Assembly (NCBI GenBank): GCA_029556615.1
Contig: JAKQDD010000196.1
Span: 11,167-75,166 of the forward strand
Origin: Verrucomicrobiota bacterium
Lineage (GTDB): Bacteria > Verrucomicrobiota > Verrucomicrobiia > Limisphaerales > J093
Reading direction: 5' to 3'
Length of the DNA stretch: 64,000 nucleotides
In this document: positions 20,315 through 51,130 of the stretch, piece by piece
How the letters are laid out: every line of letters starts with the position of its first letter
Position numbering within the stretch: the stretch's first letter is position 1
Made by a program: the position numbers and the translations under genes
Notes under the pieces: model-generated
What the model was told of the DNA's origin: nothing
Databases searched by the model: none
What the model saw: the letters and a program-made list of their open reading frames with translations, nothing else

Positions 20315-20719
20315 ATGCATTCAACATCTGAAAACGGGGTAGTCCTTGCCAAGACCCTCGAGTTATGCGGGGTCCTGGCTGCCGATCCGGACGTTGTCAC
20401 CCTCCGGCAGCAGGTCGAGGCCTTTCTGGCGGACGATGCCGCCAGGCTCCTCTACCAGACCGTGGCGGAGAAAGGCGACGCCCTGCATCGGAGGCAACAG
20501 CAGGGCCTGGCTTTGGAACCGGCTGACATCGCCGACTTCGAACGGGAACGCGACGCCTTGCTCGGCAACGACGTGGCCCGGGGCTTTCTCGAGGCTCAGC
20601 AGAAGATGCATGAGATTCAGGAGCTCGTGACCCGCTACGTGCGGAAGACGATGGAGCTGGGTCGTGTGCCCGGGCCGGACGACTTCCAGTCCTGCGGCCA
20701 GGGCTGCAGCTGCCATTAG
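20315..20719 (+). CDS. YlbF/YmcA-like (UPF0342) protein with a C-terminal Cys cluster
   Basis: 134-aa helical protein. The call rests on size, the motif FLEAQQKMHEIQELV and the terminal CGQGCSCH, which resemble the YlbF family as I recall it. Confidence 0.5.
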   Translation: MHSTSENGVVLAKTLELCGVLAADPDVVTLRQQVEAFLADDAARLLYQTVAEKGDALHRRQQQGLALEPADIADFERERDALLGNDVARGFLEAQQKMHEIQELVTRYVRKTMELGRVPGPDDFQSCGQGCSCH

Positions 20720-20899
20720 AGTCCTCGCCATGTGGAATCTGTGGTGAACAGGCCAAGGTCTACTCGGTCTGGTTACAGACCTCCCCTCCTTCCGGCGAGG
20801 ACTCTATGGTAGCGAGGCGCGGAACAGGGGGAGGGAAGGGGGCCGCGGGGTCGTGACAGGCCTGGGGACTTGGTTGGGTCTGGGGTGGCGCCTCGCTAG
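20717..20899. repeat. two-hairpin dispersed intergenic element, copy A
   Basis: Aligns to 39411-39587 and 50322-50501. Helix 1 is 20718-20729 / 20794-20805 (12 bp perfect). Helix 2 is 20810-20820 / 20888-20898 (11 bp perfect). Confidence 0.8.
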
Positions 20900-21633
20900 A
20901 ACAGCCCGGGGTACTGCTGCAGCACGGTGTCGATGTTGGTCGCCGTGACCAGCAGGAAGCGCCGTTCGAACTCGCGGTGCGGGTCGCTCTCGATCCCCTT
21001 GAGTTCGGCCGGCGCTCCGGGGCGGTTCAACACGGCGCCGAGGATCTTCCCGGAACGAAACGCTGTGCGCACGCTCTCCGGGTCGCCAAGCAGCCTCAGG
21101 TCGGGCAGGAGCAGGGCCCAGCGGGGGGTTGCCTGGCGCCATGCCTCGATTTGCGTCAGCCCCGCGGGGAGCCCGATCAGGCTGACGAGGATCTCCGTGC
21201 CGGGGCGGTTCCGGAGCAGGGTGTCCCAGCTCCCCTCTTCGGTCATGAAACTCAGCGGCGTCGACGCATCGGGCGGCAGCGGGACGGAGGACGGGTCCTG
21301 GCGGGCGGCGGGGGTGAGCGCCGGGTACGCTGTTCCCAGGATGGTCATCCGGCCGGCGGCGCCGGCTTCGAGGCCCTTGACGGCAGCCGTCTCGAACGCC
21401 TGCACTTCTGCGGGCTGATTGGGGAGTTGGCTGAAGGGGTTGCCCACAACGAGCACTTTTCCGCCGGGGAGGGTTCCTGCCAGATGCTCTCCAAGGATCC
21501 TCAGGGCGATGACCCGCCGGTCGACCGCCCGCGCGCGCACGGTTCGCTCGGGCGAGGCGTAGAACCGGTAGGCGATTAGGGCCACGGCAACCAGCAACAG
21601 ACCGGCTACCAGCGTGCGTGCGGAGGGCTTCAT
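20896..21633 (-). CDS. hypothetical membrane-anchored protein (downstream of the pilin-like gene)
   Basis: Start at MKPSARTLVAGLLLVAVALIAY (ATG 21633), 8 nt after the upstream stop. Ordinary amino-acid composition. No motif recognised. Confidence 0.55.
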   Translation of the reverse strand: MKPSARTLVAGLLLVAVALIAYRFYASPERTVRARAVDRRVIALRILGEHLAGTLPGGKVLVVGNPFSQLPNQPAEVQAFETAAVKGLEAGAAGRMTILGTAYPALTPAARQDPSSVPLPPDASTPLSFMTEEGSWDTLLRNRPGTEILVSLIGLPAGLTQIEAWRQATPRWALLLPDLRLLGDPESVRTAFRSGKILGAVLNRPGAPAELKGIESDPHREFERRFLLVTATNIDTVLQQYPGLF

Positions 21634-30079: not shown

Positions 30080-30177
30080 TGACGTAGCATGCTACTCGGC
30101 GACCAGACAACGGAAACCTCGAATCGTGCCTCGGTCTGCTCTTTGCCTATGGGAAAGGCCATGCTAGATTCCGGGGC

Positions 30178-31605
30178 ATGATGAGACCCTGCGAATCGGG
30201 AGTGCGAAGAACCGTGGGCGTGGCGGTTGCCGCCGCTGCTCTGTTGTGGCTCGGGACGGCCCGAGGCGCGGAGGACGGGGCCAAGGCTGCGGAGGCCTAC
30301 TGGCCAGCGTGGCGCGGCCCTTGGGCGACCGGCGTTTCGCCCCAAGCTGATCCCCCCATCTCCTGGAGCGAAACGCAGAACGTCAAATGGAAGGTGACGA
30401 TTCCCGGTCACGGATCGGCGACGCCGATTGTCTGGGCGGACCGGGTGTTGGTGCAGACCGCGATTCCGCGGGATGGCGGGTCGGCAGCAGCCACGTCGGC
30501 GGTCTCCTCGGAGGTCACGGGCGATCCCGGCGGACTGCCGCCGCGCGAACGCCGGCCGGGGGGCGGCGGCGGCATGCGGTCACAGACGCCGACCGAGCCT
30601 CACCGGTTTGTTCTGCTATGTCTGGACCGGAACACGGGGAAGACACTCTGGGAGCGGTGCCTGCGGGAGGAGATCCCCCACGAAGGACACCACCAGGCCG
30701 ATGGCACCTTCGCGTCCGCGTCGCCCATCACCGATGGCCAATGGGTGATCGCTTTCTTCGGTTCCCGCGGTTTGTACGGCCTGGATCTTGAAGGCAACGT
30801 CAAGTGGTCGAAGGACCTGGGACGCCTGCAGATCAAGAACGCGTTCGGTGAGGGGGCGTCCGCCGCCCTGGCCGGCAACACGGTGGTCGTGAACTGGGAC
30901 CACGAAGGCGAGGATTTCATCGCCGCGTTCGATCGGGAAACAGGCAAGGAGCTGTGGCGCCAACCGCGGGAGGAAGACACCTCGTGGTCGACACCCCTGG
31001 TGGTCACCGGCGCGGGTGCGCCGCAGGTCGTGACGTCGGCGCCGCGCAGGATCCGCAGCTACGACCTGGCCACAGGCAAGCTCCGCTGGGAGTGCGGCGG
31101 GATGACGCAGAATGTGGTCCCCACGCCGGTGGCGGGATCGGGATTGGTGTACCTGTTGAGCGGCTTTCGAGGGAGCGCCCTCCTGGCGATTCGGACCGAT
31201 GCATCGGGGGACGTGACCGGCACCGACGCCGTGGTCTGGCGGTTGGGCAAGAACACGCCGTATGTGCCGTCCCCGTTGCTGGTCGATGACAAGCTCTGCT
31301 TCTTTGCCGGCAACACGGCCGTCTTCTCCTGTCTCGACGCGAAGGACGGCAAGCCGCTGATCGACGCCCAGCGGCTCGAGGGGCTCTCGGGAGTCTATGC
31401 CTCGCCGGTGGCGGCGGCAGGACGAGTCTACCTGACCGGCCGCAACGGCGTCGTCATGGTTGTCCGGCTTGGCTCTCCGCTCGAGATCCTGGCGACCAAC
31501 CGTCTCGAGGAGCGGATTGATGCTTCTCCGGCGCTTGCGGGGAAGGAACTGTTCCTCCGCGGTCGAAGCTCGCTCTACTGCCTGGCGAGGCGCGGCTCGG
31601 ACTAA
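30178..31605 (+). CDS. PQQ-like beta-propeller repeat protein (BamB-like fold), secreted
   Basis: Signal peptide. Repeated W-containing blades (WPAWRGP, KWKVTIPG, TLWERCL, VKWSKDL, ELWRQP, LRWECGG, VVWRL). Confidence 0.75.
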   Translation: MMRPCESGVRRTVGVAVAAAALLWLGTARGAEDGAKAAEAYWPAWRGPWATGVSPQADPPISWSETQNVKWKVTIPGHGSATPIVWADRVLVQTAIPRDGGSAAATSAVSSEVTGDPGGLPPRERRPGGGGGMRSQTPTEPHRFVLLCLDRNTGKTLWERCLREEIPHEGHHQADGTFASASPITDGQWVIAFFGSRGLYGLDLEGNVKWSKDLGRLQIKNAFGEGASAALAGNTVVVNWDHEGEDFIAAFDRETGKELWRQPREEDTSWSTPLVVTGAGAPQVVTSAPRRIRSYDLATGKLRWECGGMTQNVVPTPVAGSGLVYLLSGFRGSALLAIRTDASGDVTGTDAVVWRLGKNTPYVPSPLLVDDKLCFFAGNTAVFSCLDAKDGKPLIDAQRLEGLSGVYASPVAAAGRVYLTGRNGVVMVVRLGSPLEILATNRLEERIDASPALAGKELFLRGRSSLYCLARRGSD

Positions 31606-31682
31606 CGGAACCTCCGGGCTGCAGCGGCGGGCGCTGACCGCGGCGGGTGAAAGGGGGTGCCCTTGCGGACCGTTCTCGTGCC

Positions 31683-31742
31683 GCCCTCGCCGCGGGCGGC
31701 TACAGAATGAGGACTCGACAGAGTCTGAGGCGCGCCTCGCTA
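31683..31742. repeat. internally deleted copy (D) of the two-hairpin element
   Basis: Retains GCCCTCGCC...GGCTACAGA...GAGGACTC and then GTCTGAGGCGCGCCTCGCTA. The last 19 nt match copy B exactly. Confidence 0.55.
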
Positions 31743-31747
31743 CACCC

Positions 31748-38513: not shown

Positions 38514-38888
38514 GAGGCGACTTTAGAGAACCTGCGGAGGACAATCAACGCAGCGCGGCTTGGCCGCAACCCAAGCCCAGAGTCTCTTCGTTTGCGTCCG
38601 GCTCCGACGGTGACGTCGGTCGCCGCGCTGCGCTGGCGCTATCGCGCACGACATGGGCGTCCACTCCCGGGTTTCTTTGTCCCGAATTCCGTTGTCCTTC
38701 CGCCGCCCGATCTGCACTTCGCCCGGAATCGGTGAGGCGCTTCCCTACGCTGTTGACCCCTGTGACCAATGGGAATCGCATCTCGACTTGCGACCTTGAA
38801 CGAATCACCATTGGCCATGGATCAGTCCCGATGGCTTCTGCCCAGCGGCAATCGGTTTCCCGGAGTGATCTCCTTGCTGCAGACCGGG

Positions 38889-39413
38889 ATGAAGAAGTCG
38901 ATCGCGTCCTGGGGGTTCCCGCTCCTGCTGGGCCTCGCCGTTCAGCTTGGGCCACGTGAATGTCATGGAGACGCCCTCTTCCCGGGCTACCAGGGCAGGC
39001 AGGAAGCGAGTCTGGTCACGCACGGCGGCCAGACCCTCCGATTTGGCAACACCGTCCAGGCGGAACAGTACCTGACAAGGGTGGTGCGGTCAGTGCCGGA
39101 GGGCCCGGAAGGTGTCACCCTCGACCGACCGAGTTTCACGATTGTTGACGTTTACAGCAACGGAGCGCAGCGGTACGCCGACGTCAAGGCTCTGGTTCCC
39201 GTGAAGGTGTCTGAGTCGGTTGCTGCCGGTTCCTATCCCTACTCGATCCGTCTCTACGATCGCAACAACGCTCTCCTGCTGACGGTCCAAGGGACCCTCA
39301 AGGTCAAGAGCAGCGTCGCGGCTGCCAATCGGTACAACAAGTTGATGGCGATTGGCGGGGGCGCGTTGCTGATCGTCCTTGTGATCGCGACAATCACAAG
39401 TCGCTCCGATTAG
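38889..39413 (+). CDS. hypothetical secreted protein with a C-terminal TM anchor
   Basis: Start at MKKSIASWGFPLLLGLAV (ATG 38889). C-terminal helix AIGGGALLIVLVIATI. Its stop TAG is the first triplet of repeat copy B. Confidence 0.45.
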   Translation: MKKSIASWGFPLLLGLAVQLGPRECHGDALFPGYQGRQEASLVTHGGQTLRFGNTVQAEQYLTRVVRSVPEGPEGVTLDRPSFTIVDVYSNGAQRYADVKALVPVKVSESVAAGSYPYSIRLYDRNNALLLTVQGTLKVKSSVAAANRYNKLMAIGGGALLIVLVIATITSRSD

Positions 39414-39587
39414 GTCCTCGACCTGTGGAACGTGTGGTCAACAGGTCGAGTTTGGTCCCTGCCGTTCCAAGCCTTCCCACCTTCCGTCGAGGACTCTACA
39501 TTAGCGAGGTGCGGAACAGAGGGTCCCGAAAGGCAGGAAAGCTCCATGGGATCGCGAACTTGGCTGGGTCTGAGGCGCGCCTCGCTC
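39411..39587. repeat. two-hairpin dispersed intergenic element, copy B
   Basis: Helix 1 is 39414-39422 / 39486-39494. Helix 2 is 39503-39512 / 39577-39586 (10 bp including one U-G pair). It differs from copy C at roughly 17 of ~150 aligned positions (hand alignment). Confidence 0.8.
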
Positions 39588-39661
39588 GCCCGCGTGTTTC
39601 ACACCTTCTCTGTCAACGCACAGCCGGTGCCGCTCATCGCTCAACTGATGCGGGCTAGAAA

Positions 39662-43241: not shown

Positions 43242-43451
43242 TCACGGCGCGCGGATGGCGATCACTGCGATGACGACCAGCAATTCGATCAAGGTGAAGG
43301 CCTGGTTGGCGCAAGCCCGGGCCCGAGGTGCCCGCCGCCTGGTCTGTGCGACCGCGCCGTTGCTCGTCCCCCCGGTGGAAGGCTCACGCGGGCCGCAGCG
43401 CCCGGGCGCGGAAACGCCCGGGCGCACGCTGGTCAGGTCTCCTGCGGTCAT
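43242..43451 (-). pseudogene. remnant of a prepilin-type gene (only the N-terminal methylation/TM segment remains)
   Basis: The ATG overlaps the stop of the upstream giant gene (ATGA). The ORF ends ...[22 protein letters not shown]-stop. No pilin-like body follows in any frame before the next gene. Confidence 0.4.
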
Positions 43452-46400
43452 TGCGCCACGAGTCGGGCGAAGACGACGTTGCCCGGGATCTGGGCGACCG
43501 GCACGCTGTAGGGGCTGACGGTGTTGGCGCCGGGCGCTTCCTGCCACTGGGCAATCGGCGATGCGATGTCGCTCGAGATGAGCAGCCGGGCATTGCCGGT
43601 CCAGGTCAGAACCAGGTTTCCGTTGACCACCTGGATCGTGTCGAACGTCGGCGGCTCGATCGGGGCGGGCTCGACGGTGAGGGCGGCGGCGCTGCCCACC
43701 ACGCCCAGGCCATCCGTCACGAGCACGGTGTACGTGCCGGCCGCCTGGAGTGGCACCTTGGTCAAGGTCAGCGTCTGGGTCGTCGCGCCGCTGATCGAGG
43801 CTCCGTCGGCGAGTTGCACGCCATCGAGCAGCCAGCGGTAAGCGAGGCCGTCGCCCGTGGCGCTGGTCGTGAACGTCACGGTGTCGCCTTCCTTCGCGGT
43901 CTGATCCGCCAGCTCCTGAGTCATCGCGGGGGGTGTGCGAGTCCCCGGCACGACCCGGACATTGTCCACGAGCAGGGTGCGGTCCTGGTCCGGATCCGCG
44001 ACGACGTGCGCAATCCGGAGCGCCACCGTATCGGCGAATGGGGTGAAGGGGACGAAGGCCTGGTAGAGGGGCAGCGTGTGGAGAAAACCCGGCCAGGGCG
44101 AGGAGCTGTTGACCGGCTCGAAGGTCCGGGTGTCGATGAGCGCTTCATCGAGGTAGAGCTCGTAGGTTGTTTCGGGGAACGCGCCGCTGGTGTTGTGTTC
44201 CCGACCGTCGCGTCCATTGTAGTCGAACACCAAGGTGTACGGCTGCTCCGCCTGCAGGCCGCCGACGATCTGTTCGAGGCTTCCGCCGCCCTGGAGGAAG
44301 ATCACGTTGTCCTGGTCCGAGTTGATCCCGTTGTCGAAGAACGGCTCAACGAAGAAGGTCTTCGGACTGTACCCGTTGGGACCGTACCCGTTGCGCGCCC
44401 CGCCCCATCCGGCAATCCGGGACGGCTGGATGTACCCGGGCCAGGCGGCGCCCATCGCGGTGCCTTCGAAGCTCGAGTTCATCACGGTGATCTCGCCCGG
44501 CAGCCGGGGAACGATCGAGACGGCATCGAGGAACAACGTCGCGTCGCCGGACGTGACGACGACCTTGAACTCGAGCAGGCCGGTGGCGTCGCCGGGGGTG
44601 AATCGGACTTCCTGGAAGAAGTACTCGCTCAGCCCCGCGTCGGACGCCGGAGCGACGCCCTGCAAATCGAGGATCTGCTGCCCCGCGAACGAGACCTGCA
44701 GCGCCATTTCGTACGGGTAGCCATACGTGCGGCCGTTGTAGAAGAACTGGAGGCCGTACTCCTGCCCCGGTTTCAGCCCCTTGATCGCCTGGGAGACGGT
44801 GCCGCTGCCCTGCACTCGCAGCACTTTGGCGCGGTCGGGGATTGGCGCATCCGCCGCCGGTCCGAAAGGATTGGCGGCATTGGCGATGCCGATCCCTCCG
44901 GCGGTCGTCCAGCCGGCAACGGGTGTCGAACCGACGCCGCTGTCCTTATCCAACTCGAAGCTCGGGTTGAGCACGAAGCTCGAATTGGCAACGAACAGCG
45001 CCGGGACGTCGGTGGGAGGCAACAGCCCTGCGGTATCGATCACTTGGACGCTCGCGTTCCCCACGCCGACTCCTGCGAACGAATACGGCTGGGACGTGGC
45101 GCCCGGGAGACCCCACTTCTTGCCCAGGTACCGCTCGGCCGCCTCCCGTTCGGCGGGCGACAAGGCGCGGTCGTAGACCAGGAGTTCCGCCACTTCGCCT
45201 GCCAGACCGCCGTGGCCCTGTTTGGTGGCGCCAAGGCGCCAGGGACCGTTCTGGCCCCCTTCGGTTCCGATGGGCACGGTCCGGTCGACGCTTCCGTTGA
45301 CGAAGAGGGAGAGTGTCGCCGCGGAGACGTCCTGGAGCACGGTGGCCAACGCCCAAGTGCCGGGCGTGTAGGTGCCGCTCGCCACCAGCGAAGCCTGGGC
45401 CGAAACCGATTGCAGCCTGTGGTTGGCCGAGGCGTCAGAATCGATGAAGAGCACCGTCCGGCCGCGATTGGCCGACGTGTCGAGGTCCAAGGGTTGAAGC
45501 AGGCTATCGCGCCCTTCGAGCGCGCCCGCACTCACGCCCGTGTCGTCAGAGCGGAAGACCAGGAGCGCGGTGTAGGAAGCTCCGGCCTTGGTTTGCACGG
45601 TGGCCTTGCTGTCGAGGAACTGCACGCCGTTGACCGTGCCGTCGGCATCCAGATCATCGAAGCGGACCGTCGGCAGGTTGTTGAGTCCGTTGGCGACGAA
45701 CGTGGGCTGGTTCGCCTCGGTGGCCTGGCTGGCGTCGTTCGCGTTGCCGGACGAATCGGCCCAGCTGGCCAATCGGGCGCCGTTGGCCATGCCTGTGATG
45801 GCGTCGGCCTTCAACCAGAGCTTCGCGCCCGCCGGAGGTGTGGTGGGGGCGGAGGCATTGCCGAACGTGAGGCTGAGCACGCCGTTGGCGTCGGCTCCCA
45901 CCAGTGCCGCCACATTGGTTCGCTCGCTGCGCAACCGGATCACTGCATCGCCGCTGGCCAACCGTTCGGCGGGAATGGACACCGTGCCGCCGGCTTGCTC
46001 GCCGACCCTGAGCAGCGCCGTCAGCGGCGTGATCGCGATTGGCGGGAGCTTCGAGCCGGTCCGGCCGATCACCTTGATGTCGTCGAGCAGCACTGCCGAG
46101 CCGGGGAGCGTGTTGGCGAAGCTGATGACGCTGGTCTCCTCCGCCGCCTTGAAAGTGACCGTGGCCTTGCGGTAGGCGGCCGTCCCGCCCACGGGCATGA
46201 CGTCCTGCTCCCAGATCACCGCTCCGCCCACGACGAGCTGCAGATGGGGGGTGGTCCCCGCCCGCGCGTTGTAGGCGAACTCGACGCGGTAGTCGTCATT
46301 CACCACCAGGGGGTCCAGGGTTTGCGCGACCGAACCGACACCCTCGATGAACAGCGCGACGGCCTGGTCGGGGATCTCCCCGTTGTCCGCATAACCGCCC

Positions 46401-47122
46401 GTCCCGTCGTCCACGCCCACGATGCCGGTCTTGGCCCAACCGCTCACCGCCGGCCAGTCGGTTCCGACCGCGGGAGCCCCTTCATAGACCGTGCCACTGG
46501 CCTCGAAGCTGGGGTTCTGGACGACGAAGTTGTCCTCGTCGCGCTGGACGATCGTCACCGCATCGAGCAGCGCGGTGGAATCGCCGTACGCGGTGACGGC
46601 GAACGTCAGCGTGCCGTAGTCCACCTCCGGAGTGAACACGACATTGCGGAAGTAGTACGGGGCGCCGCCGGTGACCATCCTCGGGTTCACGATTCTGTCC
46701 AGCTCGACATCCGCGAAGCGGACCGTCAGGTCATAGTCCGCGGAGTTCCGGCGGTCGTATCGGAACTGGAGCCAATAGCGCGCGCCGGGCGTGAGTCCCG
46801 CAATATCCTGGGAGATCGTGCCGGCCCCTTGTTTGAAGGCGACGCGTCGGCCGTCGGGCACGGGCGTGCCGCCGTTGTGAAACGGGCCGCTGGCTGTGTT
46901 CACGCCGTAGGCGGGCGACGAGACCCAGTCCGTGATGTCAGCCACCCCCTGGAGGTAGTGGGGCGATTCCGGATTGTAGTTGTCTTCGAAGCTTGGGTTC
47001 CGGACGAAGGCCGTTCCCGCCTGGATCGAGGTGGCGCAGCCGAGACCAGCGATGAGGGTGAGGAACGCGAGGGCGGAATGGCGATGAGCACTCATGACGT
47101 TCATGATGGTTGGATACTGCAT
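43448..47122 (-). CDS. giant secreted protein: 4 x NPSFE-type (DUF642-like) jelly-roll modules + LamG + Ig-like + C-terminal module
   Basis: Four modules start at NPSFE / NPSFE / NPSFE / NSSFE and end at LLDAVTIV / LLDDIKVIG / FLDAVSIVP / LVDNVRVVPG. LamG segment LWLKADAI...ANQPTF...LPTVRFD...AELLVYDRALS. Ig-like domain with YRWLLDGVQL. Start is ambiguous (47122, 47104 or 47095). Confidence 0.75.
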   Translation of the reverse strand: MQYPTIMNVMSAHRHSALAFLTLIAGLGCATSIQAGTAFVRNPSFEDNYNPESPHYLQGVADITDWVSSPAYGVNTASGPFHNGGTPVPDGRRVAFKQGAGTISQDIAGLTPGARYWLQFRYDRRNSADYDLTVRFADVELDRIVNPRMVTGGAPYYFRNVVFTPEVDYGTLTFAVTAYGDSTALLDAVTIVQRDEDNFVVQNPSFEASGTVYEGAPAVGTDWPAVSGWAKTGIVGVDDGTGGYADNGEIPDQAVALFIEGVGSVAQTLDPLVVNDDYRVEFAYNARAGTTPHLQLVVGGAVIWEQDVMPVGGTAAYRKATVTFKAAEETSVISFANTLPGSAVLLDDIKVIGRTGSKLPPIAITPLTALLRVGEQAGGTVSIPAERLASGDAVIRLRSERTNVAALVGADANGVLSLTFGNASAPTTPPAGAKLWLKADAITGMANGARLASWADSSGNANDASQATEANQPTFVANGLNNLPTVRFDDLDADGTVNGVQFLDSKATVQTKAGASYTALLVFRSDDTGVSAGALEGRDSLLQPLDLDTSANRGRTVLFIDSDASANHRLQSVSAQASLVASGTYTPGTWALATVLQDVSAATLSLFVNGSVDRTVPIGTEGGQNGPWRLGATKQGHGGLAGEVAELLVYDRALSPAEREAAERYLGKKWGLPGATSQPYSFAGVGVGNASVQVIDTAGLLPPTDVPALFVANSSFVLNPSFELDKDSGVGSTPVAGWTTAGGIGIANAANPFGPAADAPIPDRAKVLRVQGSGTVSQAIKGLKPGQEYGLQFFYNGRTYGYPYEMALQVSFAGQQILDLQGVAPASDAGLSEYFFQEVRFTPGDATGLLEFKVVVTSGDATLFLDAVSIVPRLPGEITVMNSSFEGTAMGAAWPGYIQPSRIAGWGGARNGYGPNGYSPKTFFVEPFFDNGINSDQDNVIFLQGGGSLEQIVGGLQAEQPYTLVFDYNGRDGREHNTSGAFPETTYELYLDEALIDTRTFEPVNSSSPWPGFLHTLPLYQAFVPFTPFADTVALRIAHVVADPDQDRTLLVDNVRVVPGTRTPPAMTQELADQTAKEGDTVTFTTSATGDGLAYRWLLDGVQLADGASISGATTQTLTLTKVPLQAAGTYTVLVTDGLGVVGSAAALTVEPAPIEPPTFDTIQVVNGNLVLTWTGNARLLISSDIASPIAQWQEAPGANTVSPYSVPVAQIPGNVVFARLVAQ

Positions 47123-47146
47123 AAGCAATGGACCTTCTGGGCTTGG

Positions 47147-47217
47147 CTAGAGTCCTGGAATTGTAGGAGATGAGGTCAGCAGGTCAAGTTTCGTCCTGCC
47201 GTTTCGAACCTATCCCC
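47147..47217. repeat. 5' half (domain 1 only) of the two-hairpin element, copy E
   Basis: CTAGAGTCCTGGAATTGTAGGAGATGAGGTCAGCAGGTCAAGTTTCGTCCTGCCGTTTCGAACCTATCCCC aligns with positions 1-70 of copies A to C. Similarity stops abruptly at about 47218. Confidence 0.55.
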
Positions 47218-49358: not shown

Positions 49359-49613
49359 ATGAAAGCGAAGATCATCATCACTCCGAAGAAGGCGGTCCTG
49401 GATCCTCAGGGCAAGACGGTTCAGAACGCGCTCGAACACCTGGGGTACCAGGGGGTGACGGGTGTGCACGTGGGCAAGTACATTGAGATCGAGCTCGCTG
49501 CGGGAACGGATCCGGAGGCTGCGCGCCGGGCGTTGAATGAAGCCTGCCACCGGTTTCTCAGCAACCCGATCATCGAGGACTATCGGCTCGAGCTCGACCC
49601 GGCCGCCGCCTGA
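49359..49613 (+). CDS. purS: phosphoribosylformylglycinamidine synthase subunit PurS
   Basis: 84 aa. [29 protein letters not shown]...[11 protein letters not shown] is near-consensus for PurS. Confidence 0.9.
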
Positions 49614-49621
49614 CACCCCTG

Positions 49622-50347
49622 TTGACCACCGTGCACTTCGCCGTCATTCAATTCCCCGCGTCGAACTGCGATCAGGATTGCCGGCACGCCATCCGGGTGC
49701 TGGGGCACGAGGCCGAGTTTGTGTGGCACAAGGAAACCGGGCTGGGGGCAGTGGATGCCGTGATCATCCCGGGCGGGTTCAGTTACGGGGACTATTTGCG
49801 GTGCGGGGCGATCGCGCGCTTCAGTCCGGTGATGCAGGCGGTGCAGGAGTTTGCCGCCGGGGGCGGGTTGGTGATCGGGATCTGCAACGGATTCCAGATT
49901 CTCTGTGAGGCGGGGCTTCTGCCCGGAGCGCTGGTGCGGAACCGGGACCTGCAATTTCACTGCGAACCGGTGCATCTCCGCGTTGCGACGCACGATTCTC
50001 CGTTCACGTGCAAGGTGCCGGCGGGCCGGATCCTGCGGATCCCGATCGCGCATGGGGAGGGCTGCTACTACGCCGACGCCGCGGTGCTGTCGGAGCTCGA
50101 ACGTCGCCGGCAGATCCTCTGGCAGTACTGCGACGCGGACGGCAACCTGACCGAGTCGGCGAATCCGAACGGATCGCTGCTGAACATCGCGGGGATCTGC
50201 AACGAACAGCGGAATGTGGCGGGCCTGATGCCCCACCCGGACCGCGCCAGCGAGGAGATCCTCGGCAGCGCGGACGGGCGTTTGATCTTCGAGAGCATGA
50301 TCGAGGCGCTTCTCGTCTCCCGAGAGTCCTCGACTTCTGAAACATAG
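49622..50347 (+). CDS. purQ: phosphoribosylformylglycinamidine synthase I (glutaminase subunit PurQ)
   Basis: [14 protein letters not shown], catalytic [15 protein letters not shown]. The start is TTG 49622 or GTG 49631. The last ~8 codons lie inside repeat copy C. Confidence 0.9.
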
Positions 50348-50501
50348 GGTCAACAGGTCAAGTTTGGTCCCTGCTGTTCCGGGCCTTCCCTCCTTCCGTC
50401 GAGGACTCTCCATTAGCGAGGCGTGGAAGAGAGGGTCCGGAAAGGCAGGAAGGCTTCATGGGATCGCGGACTTCGTTAGGTCTGAGGCGGCGCCTCGCTA
50501 G
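50322..50501. repeat. two-hairpin dispersed intergenic element, copy C
   Basis: Helix 1 is 50322-50334 / 50398-50410 (13 bp perfect). Helix 2 is 50414-50423 / 50491-50500 (10 bp perfect). It spans the whole purQ/frr intergenic gap. Confidence 0.85.
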
Positions 50502-51058
50502 ACCGTCATGATCTCCTTCTCCTTGTGGGCGACGTGCTGGTCGATTTTGGCGATGTACTCGTCGTGGCACTTCTGGACTTCCTTCTCGGCGTGCTTCTCT
50601 TCGTCCTCGGTGACGCCCCCGGCCTTGGCGGTTTTCTTGAGCTGCTCGATGGCCTCCCGGCGCACGTGACGGACAGCGACGCGGCTGTCCTCGGCCATCT
50701 TGCGGACGATCTTGACGAATTCCTGCCTGCGTTCCGTGCTGAGCTCGGGGAACACGATCCGGAGGACCTTCTTGTCGATGGCCGGGTTCAGTCCCAGGTT
50801 CGCCTTTTGGATGGCCTTCTCGATGGGATGGAGGGTGGTGACGTCCCACGGTTGGATCACCAGGACGCGGGGTTCGGGCGCGGTGATGCCCGCGAGCTCC
50901 CGGAGGCGCATCTGGGAGCCGTAGGCGTCCACCATGAGGTTTTCGACCAGGGTGGCGGAGGCTTTGCCGGTGCGGACGCCGCCGAACTCGTGGAGGAGCA
51001 CCTGCTCGGTCTTTTGCATCTTCTCACGGGCTTCGGCCAGGATTTGCGGGATGGTCAT
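50498..51058 (-). CDS. frr: ribosome recycling factor
   Basis: 186 aa. The sequence TGKASATLVENLMVDAYGSQMRLRELAGI...VIQPWD...KAIQKANLGLNP is typical of RRF. Confidence 0.95.
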   Translation of the reverse strand: MTIPQILAEAREKMQKTEQVLLHEFGGVRTGKASATLVENLMVDAYGSQMRLRELAGITAPEPRVLVIQPWDVTTLHPIEKAIQKANLGLNPAIDKKVLRIVFPELSTERRQEFVKIVRKMAEDSRVAVRHVRREAIEQLKKTAKAGGVTEDEEKHAEKEVQKCHDEYIAKIDQHVAHKEKEIMTV

Positions 51059-51130
51059 AGGCTGGGGTTCTTTCGTTGACTGAGTGATGTTGCGGGGTCT
51101 TTTCGGATCCTGAGGGTGCCGTGCGGCGGA

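Follow-up and report, generated by a model that had tools for sequence, protein, structure and literature searches.

A high-copy, two-module inverted-repeat element at gene ends in an uncultured Verrucomicrobiota lineage, probably a MITE-like mobile repeat

Among known bacterial elements, IS630 prefers CTAG and duplicates the TA, and RIME1 of Sinorhizobium is a mosaic palindromic repeat. Bacterial MITEs generally carry TA at their ends, and the CIR repeat of Caulobacter consists of 5' and 3' sections that fold independently into long stem-loops (PMC2229807). MITEPsy1 of Pseudomonas syringae (ISPsy2, IS5 family), which is 100 nt long, inserts at CTAG or YTAA and duplicates those four nucleotides (PMC3189936). 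As well, the class of REP/REPIN sequences with RAYT occurs in Verrucomicrobia, such as Opitutus (PMC3733652). Here we describe a repeat from a window of 64 kb (the whole stretch of verrucomicrobial DNA that was analyzed), with emphasis on one copy, copy A, which is probably a member of a high-copy, non-coding and modular family of MITE-like or mosaic mobile repeats moved in trans. Two helices had been described in copy A, and in the best-supported reading they are the terminal inverted repeats of its two modules, D1 and D2.

Copy A is a full two-module element, which consists of D1, a 4-nt linker and D2 (20717-20899, plus strand, nhmmer score of 140-166 against the family profile), and it is flanked by the tetramers TTAG (20716-20719) and CTAG (20896-20899). 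On the same strand, the left inverted repeat of D1, AGAGTCCTCGCC (20718-20729), carries the "C" variant of the consensus ..CTCGAC and forms the 5' arm of helix 1, the 3' arm of which is the right inverted repeat GGCGAGGACTCT (20794-20805). The conserved D1 box of copy A, GGTGAACAGGCCAAGG (20743-20758, consensus GGTCAACAGGTCAAGT), contains a G at 20746 that marks the sub-lineage with a C-G pair in this helix. The linker, ATGG (20806-20809), corresponds to the consensus ACAT and is variable in the family, with 16% non-consensus bases. D2 is bounded by the left and right inverted repeats TAGCGAGGCGC (20810-20820) and GCGCCTCGCTA (20888-20898), which are the two arms of helix 2, and its interior (20821-20887) is of a type b-like, G-rich subfamily. 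The first-pass annotation had given the same sequence and coordinates for helix 1, a perfect 11 bp for helix 2, and a double change from A-T to C-G that distinguishes copy A (CTCGCC / GGCGAG) from copies B and C (CTCGAC / GTCGAG), and all of these were reproduced. It had also called the interior of D2 heavily diverged and G-rich. The interior is indeed G-rich and unlike that of copies B and C, but it shares 68-69% identity with the type b consensus and 60% with type a, and it represents another interior subfamily and not decay of the B/C type.

Both flanking stop codons were found within copy A, as had been noticed before. A gene of the YlbF family (Pfam PF06133, 20315-20719, plus strand) terminates with the TAG at 20717-20719, which is the left terminal TAG of the element, and a convergent gene encoding 245 amino acids (20896-21633, minus strand) terminates with the plus-strand CTA at 20896-20898, which is the right terminal TAG on the other strand. 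In an element-free relative, the YlbF orthologue ends with ..GGC TAG, that is, with CTAG, and the YlbF protein of the window aligned to that of this relative over residues 1-133 of 134, indicating that the insertion of copy A did not truncate the gene; its product has the full length of its homologues.

The unit of the family is ~180 nt long and consists of two adjacent modules, D1 and D2 (~88 nt each), whose ends are TAGAGTCCTCGAC...GTCGAGGACTCTA and TAGCGAGGCGC...GCGCCTCGCTA, respectively, and its consensus reads C TAG AGTCCTCGAC (~63 nt) GTCGAGGACTCTA CAT TAG CGAGGCGC (~65 nt) GCGCCTCGCTAG. Each module possesses terminal inverted repeats of 11-13 bp beginning with TAG, conserved subterminal boxes and a variable interior. 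Conservation exceeds 90% in the four arms, in the D1 box CAGGTCAAGTT and in the 3' subterminal part of D2 (GGACT..GGTCTGAGGC), and the box in the latter (GGACT..GGGTCTG.GG) is common to all D2 types. The interiors fall into at least two subfamilies for D1 and at least three for D2, which are wholly different from each other. Solo D1 and solo D2 copies were also found in complete form, sharp-ended and with both arms, for instance a solo D2 that reads CTAG CGAGG...CCTCG CTAG. Variants of D1 and D2 are combined independently of each other (chi-square p = 0.49 and 0.71), and free assortment extends even to the two halves of D1. Moreover, approximately one tenth of the copies stand directly after another copy with one CTAG in common, and 16 copies are joined on the left to an unrelated repeat of ~165 nt, module X. 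As read from the sequence, an inverted-repeat relationship exists between the ends of each module and not between the two outer ends of the composite, and moving the composite as a unit needs an extra assumption.

Five copies or fragments of the repeat, all on the plus strand, are present in the window. Copies B (39411-39588) and C (50322-50501) are full copies with a type a D2. The right tetramer of copy B has decayed to CTCG, and its left TAG (39411-39413) is the stop codon of gene 38766-39413. Copy C has the left tetramer CGAG, so that gene 49541-50347 extends 8 codons into D1 and ends at an internal TAG, and its right CTAG (50498-50501) provides the stop codon of the minus-strand gene 50498-51130. 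Copy D (47148-47217), a decayed D1 fragment with CTAG (47147-47150) before it, adjoins the start side of the minus-strand gene 43448-47146. Copy E (31582-31743) is a solo D2-type element with a longer and different interior and with the ends CTGG CGAGGCGCGG ... GGACTCGACAGAGTCTGAGGCGCGCCTCG CTAC, and gene 30088-31605 terminates within it.

The window matches a contig of the MAG GCA_035356785.1 and contigs of JGI metagenomes, and the sequencing runs that contain the stretch, none of which is an RNA run, are labelled as activated-sludge, bioreactor-sludge or sludge metagenomes. The UvrA of the host is at most 70% identical to that of Verrucomicrobiota MAGs labelled Pedosphaera, Limisphaerales or Verrucomicrobiales, suggesting that the host lineage is verrucomicrobial and uncultured and that none of 185,579 species genomes is closely related to it. 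An exact scan of these genomes, a set from which the source species is absent, yielded no match to a 24-base core pattern, and the relatives in this set are without the element consensus. Similarly, no relative of the element was detected in a profile scan of 80 uvrA loci (~24 from Verrucomicrobiota, 1.29 Mb). A 21-base core pattern matched at least 116 metagenome contig stretches, and a family profile built from copies A, B and C, which was run with nhmmer on the matched loci (~1 Mb of related metagenome contigs), gave at least 220 matches at 180 or more distinct loci, including at least 138 full-length and at least 42 partial copies. The recurrence of a ~180-nt unit in the window and at no fewer than 180 loci excludes chance. 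In one metagenome run, the depth over the element core was ~30 times that of its flanks, and the DNA contigs aligned at the copy A locus showed only high repeat depth and no empty allele. The density in the window, roughly one copy per 13-20 kb, points to a few hundred copies per genome, and the repeat is probably scattered in hundreds of copies through this genome.

The genome has a G+C content of 67%, and CTAG occurs only 11 times in the window versus 193 expected from base composition (~17-fold depleted); GATC occurs 494 times in the same window. Three of the 11 CTAG sites are element ends. Both end motifs were located in 116 copies, of which 79 have CTAG as the right tetramer and 60 have it as the left, and the commonest variants, CCAG and CTGG, are each one transition away from CTAG; in 14 further copies the left tetramer is GTGG, which represents the junction with module X. 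Both TA dinucleotides are intact in 57 copies, 44 of which have CTAG on both sides, and the inner G (left) and C (right) are invariant where the outer bases vary. The first-pass annotation had asked whether CTAG or TAG marks every end, which would indicate a target-site preference; this idea is borne out, as one or the other stands at most ends, although not at all, and overlaps systematically with stop codons. The flanks of the copies were scored by codon usage, with 264 long ORFs as the training set. On 33 left and 38 right sides a gene is directed toward the element, with both orientations equal, and in 21 of these left and 28 of these right gene ends (49/71 in total) the stop codon coincides exactly with the terminal TAG. 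In this element-enriched sample, an element end follows 41 of the 90 TAG stops of long genes. The copies mainly adjoin the 3' ends of genes, and they often separate convergent genes.

Filled and empty sites were observed in related genomes (L037/L056 versus L088, and L015/L033 versus L119/L095/L084). At these two loci, the flanks are 87-99% identical and resume exactly outside the terminal tetramers, and the net gain amounts to 4 nt in addition to the core. CCAA and CGAG, and not CTAG, are found at the two clean empty sites, so that the target preference rests on flank statistics and the duplications of TA and of CTAG are inseparable at these sites; the invariant inner bases of the flanks may fit a TA duplication with a C-TA-G preference slightly better than a 4-nt duplication, on the basis of 11 informative cases. 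In a sister lineage (locus L200, YlbF 86% identical), a full copy is present at a place that is empty in the window, and the site of copy A holds a 52-nt remnant with both ends (CTAG AGTCCTGGAC ... CTCTGAGGTGCGCCTCGCTAG) and neither helix, suggesting that both insertions and deletions of the family have occurred on a time scale comparable to that of these lineages. According to these sequences, the copy A site would either have been occupied before the lineages split or have been hit twice. Insertions are not always harmless, since one lies inside an ORF that continues for 57 codons further in the empty genome, and another, in L200, lies in the 5' coding part of a gene and has given it a new ATG and N-terminus. 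As for an autonomous partner, ~1 Mb of loci contained neither a long multi-copy repeat nor a gene enclosed by distant arm pairs. Metagenome assemblies are usually broken at IS copies.

The copies are thus repeated, modular and bounded by inverted repeats, they are present or absent at corresponding sites, they have CTAG flanks and overlap stop codons, and they show no strand or orientation bias; a transposase, the size of the duplication and any present activity are inferred. In the mechanism that we propose for a mobile repeat, a transposase acting in trans, likely a DDE enzyme of the IS630/Tc1-mariner kind or of the IS5 kind, would recognize the repeats and integrate the element at the TA within the palindrome CTAG, which would duplicate TA or CTAG. 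Because CTAG is depleted and survives mostly as C followed by a TAG stop, insertions would land on gene ends, and because the duplicated palindrome restores TAG on both strands, both convergent genes would keep a stop codon and the insertion would be tolerated. If only copies with two matching ends propagate, arm variants would spread as matched pairs, and this would appear as compensatory change. The dissimilar outer ends, the lack of a partner in ~1 Mb, the two clean empty sites that do not read CTAG and the hints of constraint after insertion, which come from the arms of nearest neighbours and from the orthologous pair L015/L119, argue against this reading.

The first-pass annotation had taken the C-G pair of copy A as the signature of selection on pairing rather than on sequence. 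Pairing was tested on 138 full copies with the two helices described there (23 pairs) and 500 shuffles. The arms are 62-66 nt apart, and 96.0% of the helix cells pair, against 28-46% in slid controls. Two-sided changes were found in 17 cells of 9 pairs, compared with 3.2 cells and 2.6 pairs after shuffling, and none of the 500 shuffles reached the observed values. Two parts of the helices, the 3' arm of helix 1 and 8 nt in the 5' arm of helix 2, were constrained by the search pattern, and the flagged pair was free; these constraints can only hide covariation, in 99 of the copies. However, uncompensated changes (128 unpaired and 66 wobble cells) far outnumber the 17 compensated ones.

At the flagged pair itself, A-T is present in 117 copies, C-G in six, A.C in six, G-T in four, and the half-changed states C.T and A.G in four copies and one copy, respectively. 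In the D1 box, all six C-G copies have the derived G (GGTGA; Fisher p = 8.7e-6). Two of the six are orthologues that occupy one locus in two lineages, and a seventh member was found in L200. This lineage supplies 6 of the 17 two-sided cells. The shared derived base in D1 and the orthologous pair suggest that the C-G change represents approximately one inherited event and not repeated compensation. The C-G pair is a marker of a single sub-lineage. Of the broader claim, the part on pairing holds, since pairing exceeds chance, but the part that excludes sequence does not, because the arms are also conserved in sequence. Non-consensus bases account for 2-3.5% in the arms and 15-23% in the interiors, and between nearest neighbours 3.7% of arm positions differ versus 11.4% of interior positions (p = 5e-40), about three times less in the arms. 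Per-column singleton counts, which had indicated equal decay of arms and interiors, were discarded because this measure becomes saturated where columns are variable and is contradicted by the nearest-neighbour comparison. Matching arms of this kind are what the terminal inverted repeats of mobile elements look like.

The excess of two-sided changes is also what could be expected from a structured RNA or a domesticated gene-end element whose pairing is kept by host selection, with a possible role as a two-way transcription stop or insulator, a 3'-end mRNA stabilizer or a protein-binding site. We regard this explanation as distinctly unlikely, although several observations agree with it, including the position at gene 3' ends and often between convergent genes and the conservation of the arms even between nearest neighbours. 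Fold z-scores are modest (-1.9 and -3.2), and the lower one, which belongs to the minus-strand fold of copy A, points in the same direction, as does the orthologous pair L015/L119. This pair has no changes in the 25 positions of the helix-1 arms, the four of the linker and the 87 of D2 (0 in 116 nt), and the unchanged run reaches into the 3' part of the D1 interior, while divergence amounts to 11-16% in the flanks and 19% in the remainder of the D1 interior. Such identity could reflect either a short recombination tract or real constraint, and the helix-less 52-nt remnant of the sister lineage counts against constraint, suggesting that the structure is dispensable at the copy A site.

Further results argue against a structured RNA or a gene-end element. 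Rfam gave no match at the gathering score in the whole window and only chance-level matches at the locus with E values up to 10, and no terminator or promoter pattern was found between 20500 and 21100. An intrinsic terminator, in which a G+C-rich hairpin with a loop of 3-8 nt precedes a T run, was rejected, since the loops exceed 60 nt and no T run follows. No shared predicted structure was detected beyond the closing helices, and the interiors, as mentioned above, are wholly different between subfamilies. G.T and A.C mismatches are about equally frequent, which suggests that neither strand behaves as a selected RNA. The equal gene orientations (33 versus 38), the insertions within coding sequence, the predominance of breaks over compensations and the single origin of the C-G pair also disagree with a structure kept for the host. 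It is also conceivable, though rather unlikely, that the host has co-opted the family, or at least D2 with the arms, for a role at gene ends, where it could act as a two-way stop, an insulator or a protein-binding site between convergent genes. In this case, the element would have been kept by selection after insertion, in a lineage without recognizable intrinsic terminators, and it would combine the properties of a stop-codon-seeking transposon with those of a functional 3' module. Overall, a host-selected function as RNA or DNA appears unlikely.

A REP/REPIN-like element, which would be moved as single-stranded DNA by an HUH tyrosine transposase (RAYT, "TIRYT" or an IS200/IS605 relative), is improbable. 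According to this explanation, recognition would take place at the hairpins and cleavage at the terminal tetranucleotide. The arms can indeed form hairpins, the end tetranucleotide is conserved, with GTAG before D2 in copy A and some other copies, and the composite lacks an end-to-end inverted repeat, as in that class. In addition, GTAG-tagged REPs and RAYT-like genes with long flanking inverted repeats have been reported in the PVC group, including Verrucomicrobia (PMC3733652). However, the arms are 62-66 nt apart instead of forming a 20-40 nt hairpin, and the consensus tag, (C/T)TAG, is present at either side and is symmetric around the TA. Strand-specific insertion of single-stranded DNA further predicts an orientation bias among neighbouring copies, and none was found (33 in the same and 24 in the opposite orientation, p = 0.29), suggesting that the all-plus arrangement in the window is due to chance. 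Single-strand transposition, which the five all-plus copies of the window had suggested, was not supported by this larger sample.

It is very unlikely that the family is an old one which is not now mobile, with its similarity and reshuffling mainly produced by recombination or gene conversion and the matching arms being a by-product of conversion. The free assortment of D1 and D2 variants and even of the halves of D1, the half-changed arm pairs and the occupation of the copy A site already in the sister lineage are consistent with such a history, and nearest-neighbour copies are still ~7.6% apart, which indicates no very recent burst. On the other hand, exact presence and absence at three sites in genomes 86-98% alike, together with the CTAG flanks and the tandem copies with one CTAG in common, call for insertion events and not for conversion alone. 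Finally, a bridge-RNA element (IS110), which the size and the two loops had prompted, was rejected, since the flanks have only CTAG in common and the insert is a bare 180 nt.

Recognition of the family prevents mis-annotation, since its hairpins mimic an RNA structure with "covariation" and the element supplies stop codons. In places, it gives neighbouring genes new C-termini or a new start codon. Read as a mobile repeat, it would offer a clear example of a transposon that finds a safe landing site via a depleted palindrome, with CTAG regenerated on both strands. At the estimated number of a few hundred copies, the family probably causes breaks in assemblies and could serve as a strain marker for this uncultured Verrucomicrobiota lineage of sludge. 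Knowledge of how such elements work is unchanged by the finding.

Among the known systems, REP/REPIN sequences with RAYT are similar to the present element in their short conserved terminal tetranucleotide beside a palindrome and in their inverted pairs that form hairpins, whereas the present element differs in its (C/T)TAG tag instead of GTAG, in its geometry and in the absence of a strand bias. Its modules are not hairpins of 20-40 nt with a GTAG or CGTC tag, as in the consensus D2 is preceded by TTAG and the outer ends carry CTAG, GTAG being confined to a minority of copies such as copy A. Nor does it show the strand-specific insertion of IS200/IS605-type elements (PATE), given 33 versus 24 orientations and symmetric TA-centred flanks. 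BIMEs of E. coli, RIME1 and CIR are, like the present repeat, intergenic mosaics of palindromic units in several arrangements, which occur solo, paired or in tandem and can be joined to other modules, as with module X here. However, BIME units are REP hairpins of 20-40 nt with a GTAG tag that bind gyrase or IHF, whereas the present units are ~88 nt long with arms 62-66 nt apart. MITEPsy1 is likewise small with inverted repeats, and its target sites may be compared with the flanks of the present element, which read CTAG, TTAG, CTAA and CTAC; it differs in its unrelated terminal repeats, its single module and its experimentally shown mobility, whereas we infer that of the present element. The MITEs of the IS630/Tc1-mariner type, such as RUP of pneumococcus, Correia/NEMIS of Neisseria and Nezha of cyanobacteria, are also shorter than 200 bp, non-coding and high-copy, with terminal inverted repeats, TA at both ends and the capacity to form hairpins, and they are mostly intergenic and often located just after genes. 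Unlike these A+T-rich elements, the present one is G+C-rich, consists of two different inverted-repeat modules with no end-to-end repeat, and has a presumed TA duplication and no partner IS in ~1 Mb of loci. It agrees with MITEs in being a non-coding repeat below ~300 bp with many dispersed copies, and it represents a new family within a known type of element.

One copy of the element is present in two related lineages, at L015:11062-11240 and L119:8414-8591. Between the two loci there are differences at 17/150 and 24/150 positions of the flanks and at 12 of 63 in the interior of D1, but none in either helix-1 arm, in the linker or in D2 over its full length (87 nt). A solo D1 at L104:2262-2353, the arms of which (TAGAGTCCTCCCCCC / GGCGGGGGCTCTA) differ from the usual ones and still pair if T.G pairs are permitted, may represent a diverged subfamily.

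The site of copy A was also found in the sister lineage (L200), whose YlbF is 86% identical to that of the window. Only a 52-nt remnant is present there (L200:10402-10453), which retains the two ends of the element together with the two stop codons and is probably the product of an internal deletion. The sister lineage also has, at L200:1560-2234 and 8 kb from the YlbF gene, a gene whose product contains a Y2_Tnp domain (IS91-type transposase); no link between this gene and the element was seen.

The C-G sub-lineage, in which a C-G pair replaces A-T in helix 1, has a further copy on the minus strand at L200:11160-11340. There it lies within the 5' portion of the coding sequence of the orthologue of window gene 20896-21633, and its empty counterpart lies at window ~21600-21633. 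The ATG in TTCATGAG of D2 appears to supply this orthologue with a new protein start and N-terminus. Another element (L015:10314-10492) is inserted inside an ORF, which in the empty genome (L119:7839-7852) extends for 57 more codons; the filled ORF gains ~31 element-encoded codons and stops at the TAG opening D2, directly past the linker. At window 50321-50347, the left tetramer of copy C is CGAG instead of CTAG; the reading frame of gene 49541-50347 therefore runs on through 8 codons of the element before ending at a TAG within D1.

CTAG itself is extremely depleted in the whole window: base composition predicts 193 occurrences and 11 are present, compared with 494 for GATC. This depletion suggests that strong counter-selection, or else a bias in repair, operates in this lineage.

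A second repeat of ~165 nt, module X (CAATGAGTCTGTCACCTTGTTTGCGGCAC...CCCAGCGCAGTCTGGGAAAAGGCGTGG), is unrelated to the element and has internal palindromes of its own. It occurs at 16 loci, among them L027:3252-3415 (minus strand), L035:1-212 and L019:486-650. In 16 element copies the left arm is joined directly to module X, which replaces CTAG, and the module X copies share 91-99% identity. Moreover, the D2 interior of the element copy at L044:13210-13428 is interrupted by ~30 nt (..GAGTCTGTCACCTTGTTTGCGGCAC..) matching the start of module X, a resemblance suggesting that one module inserts into another or that the modules recombine.
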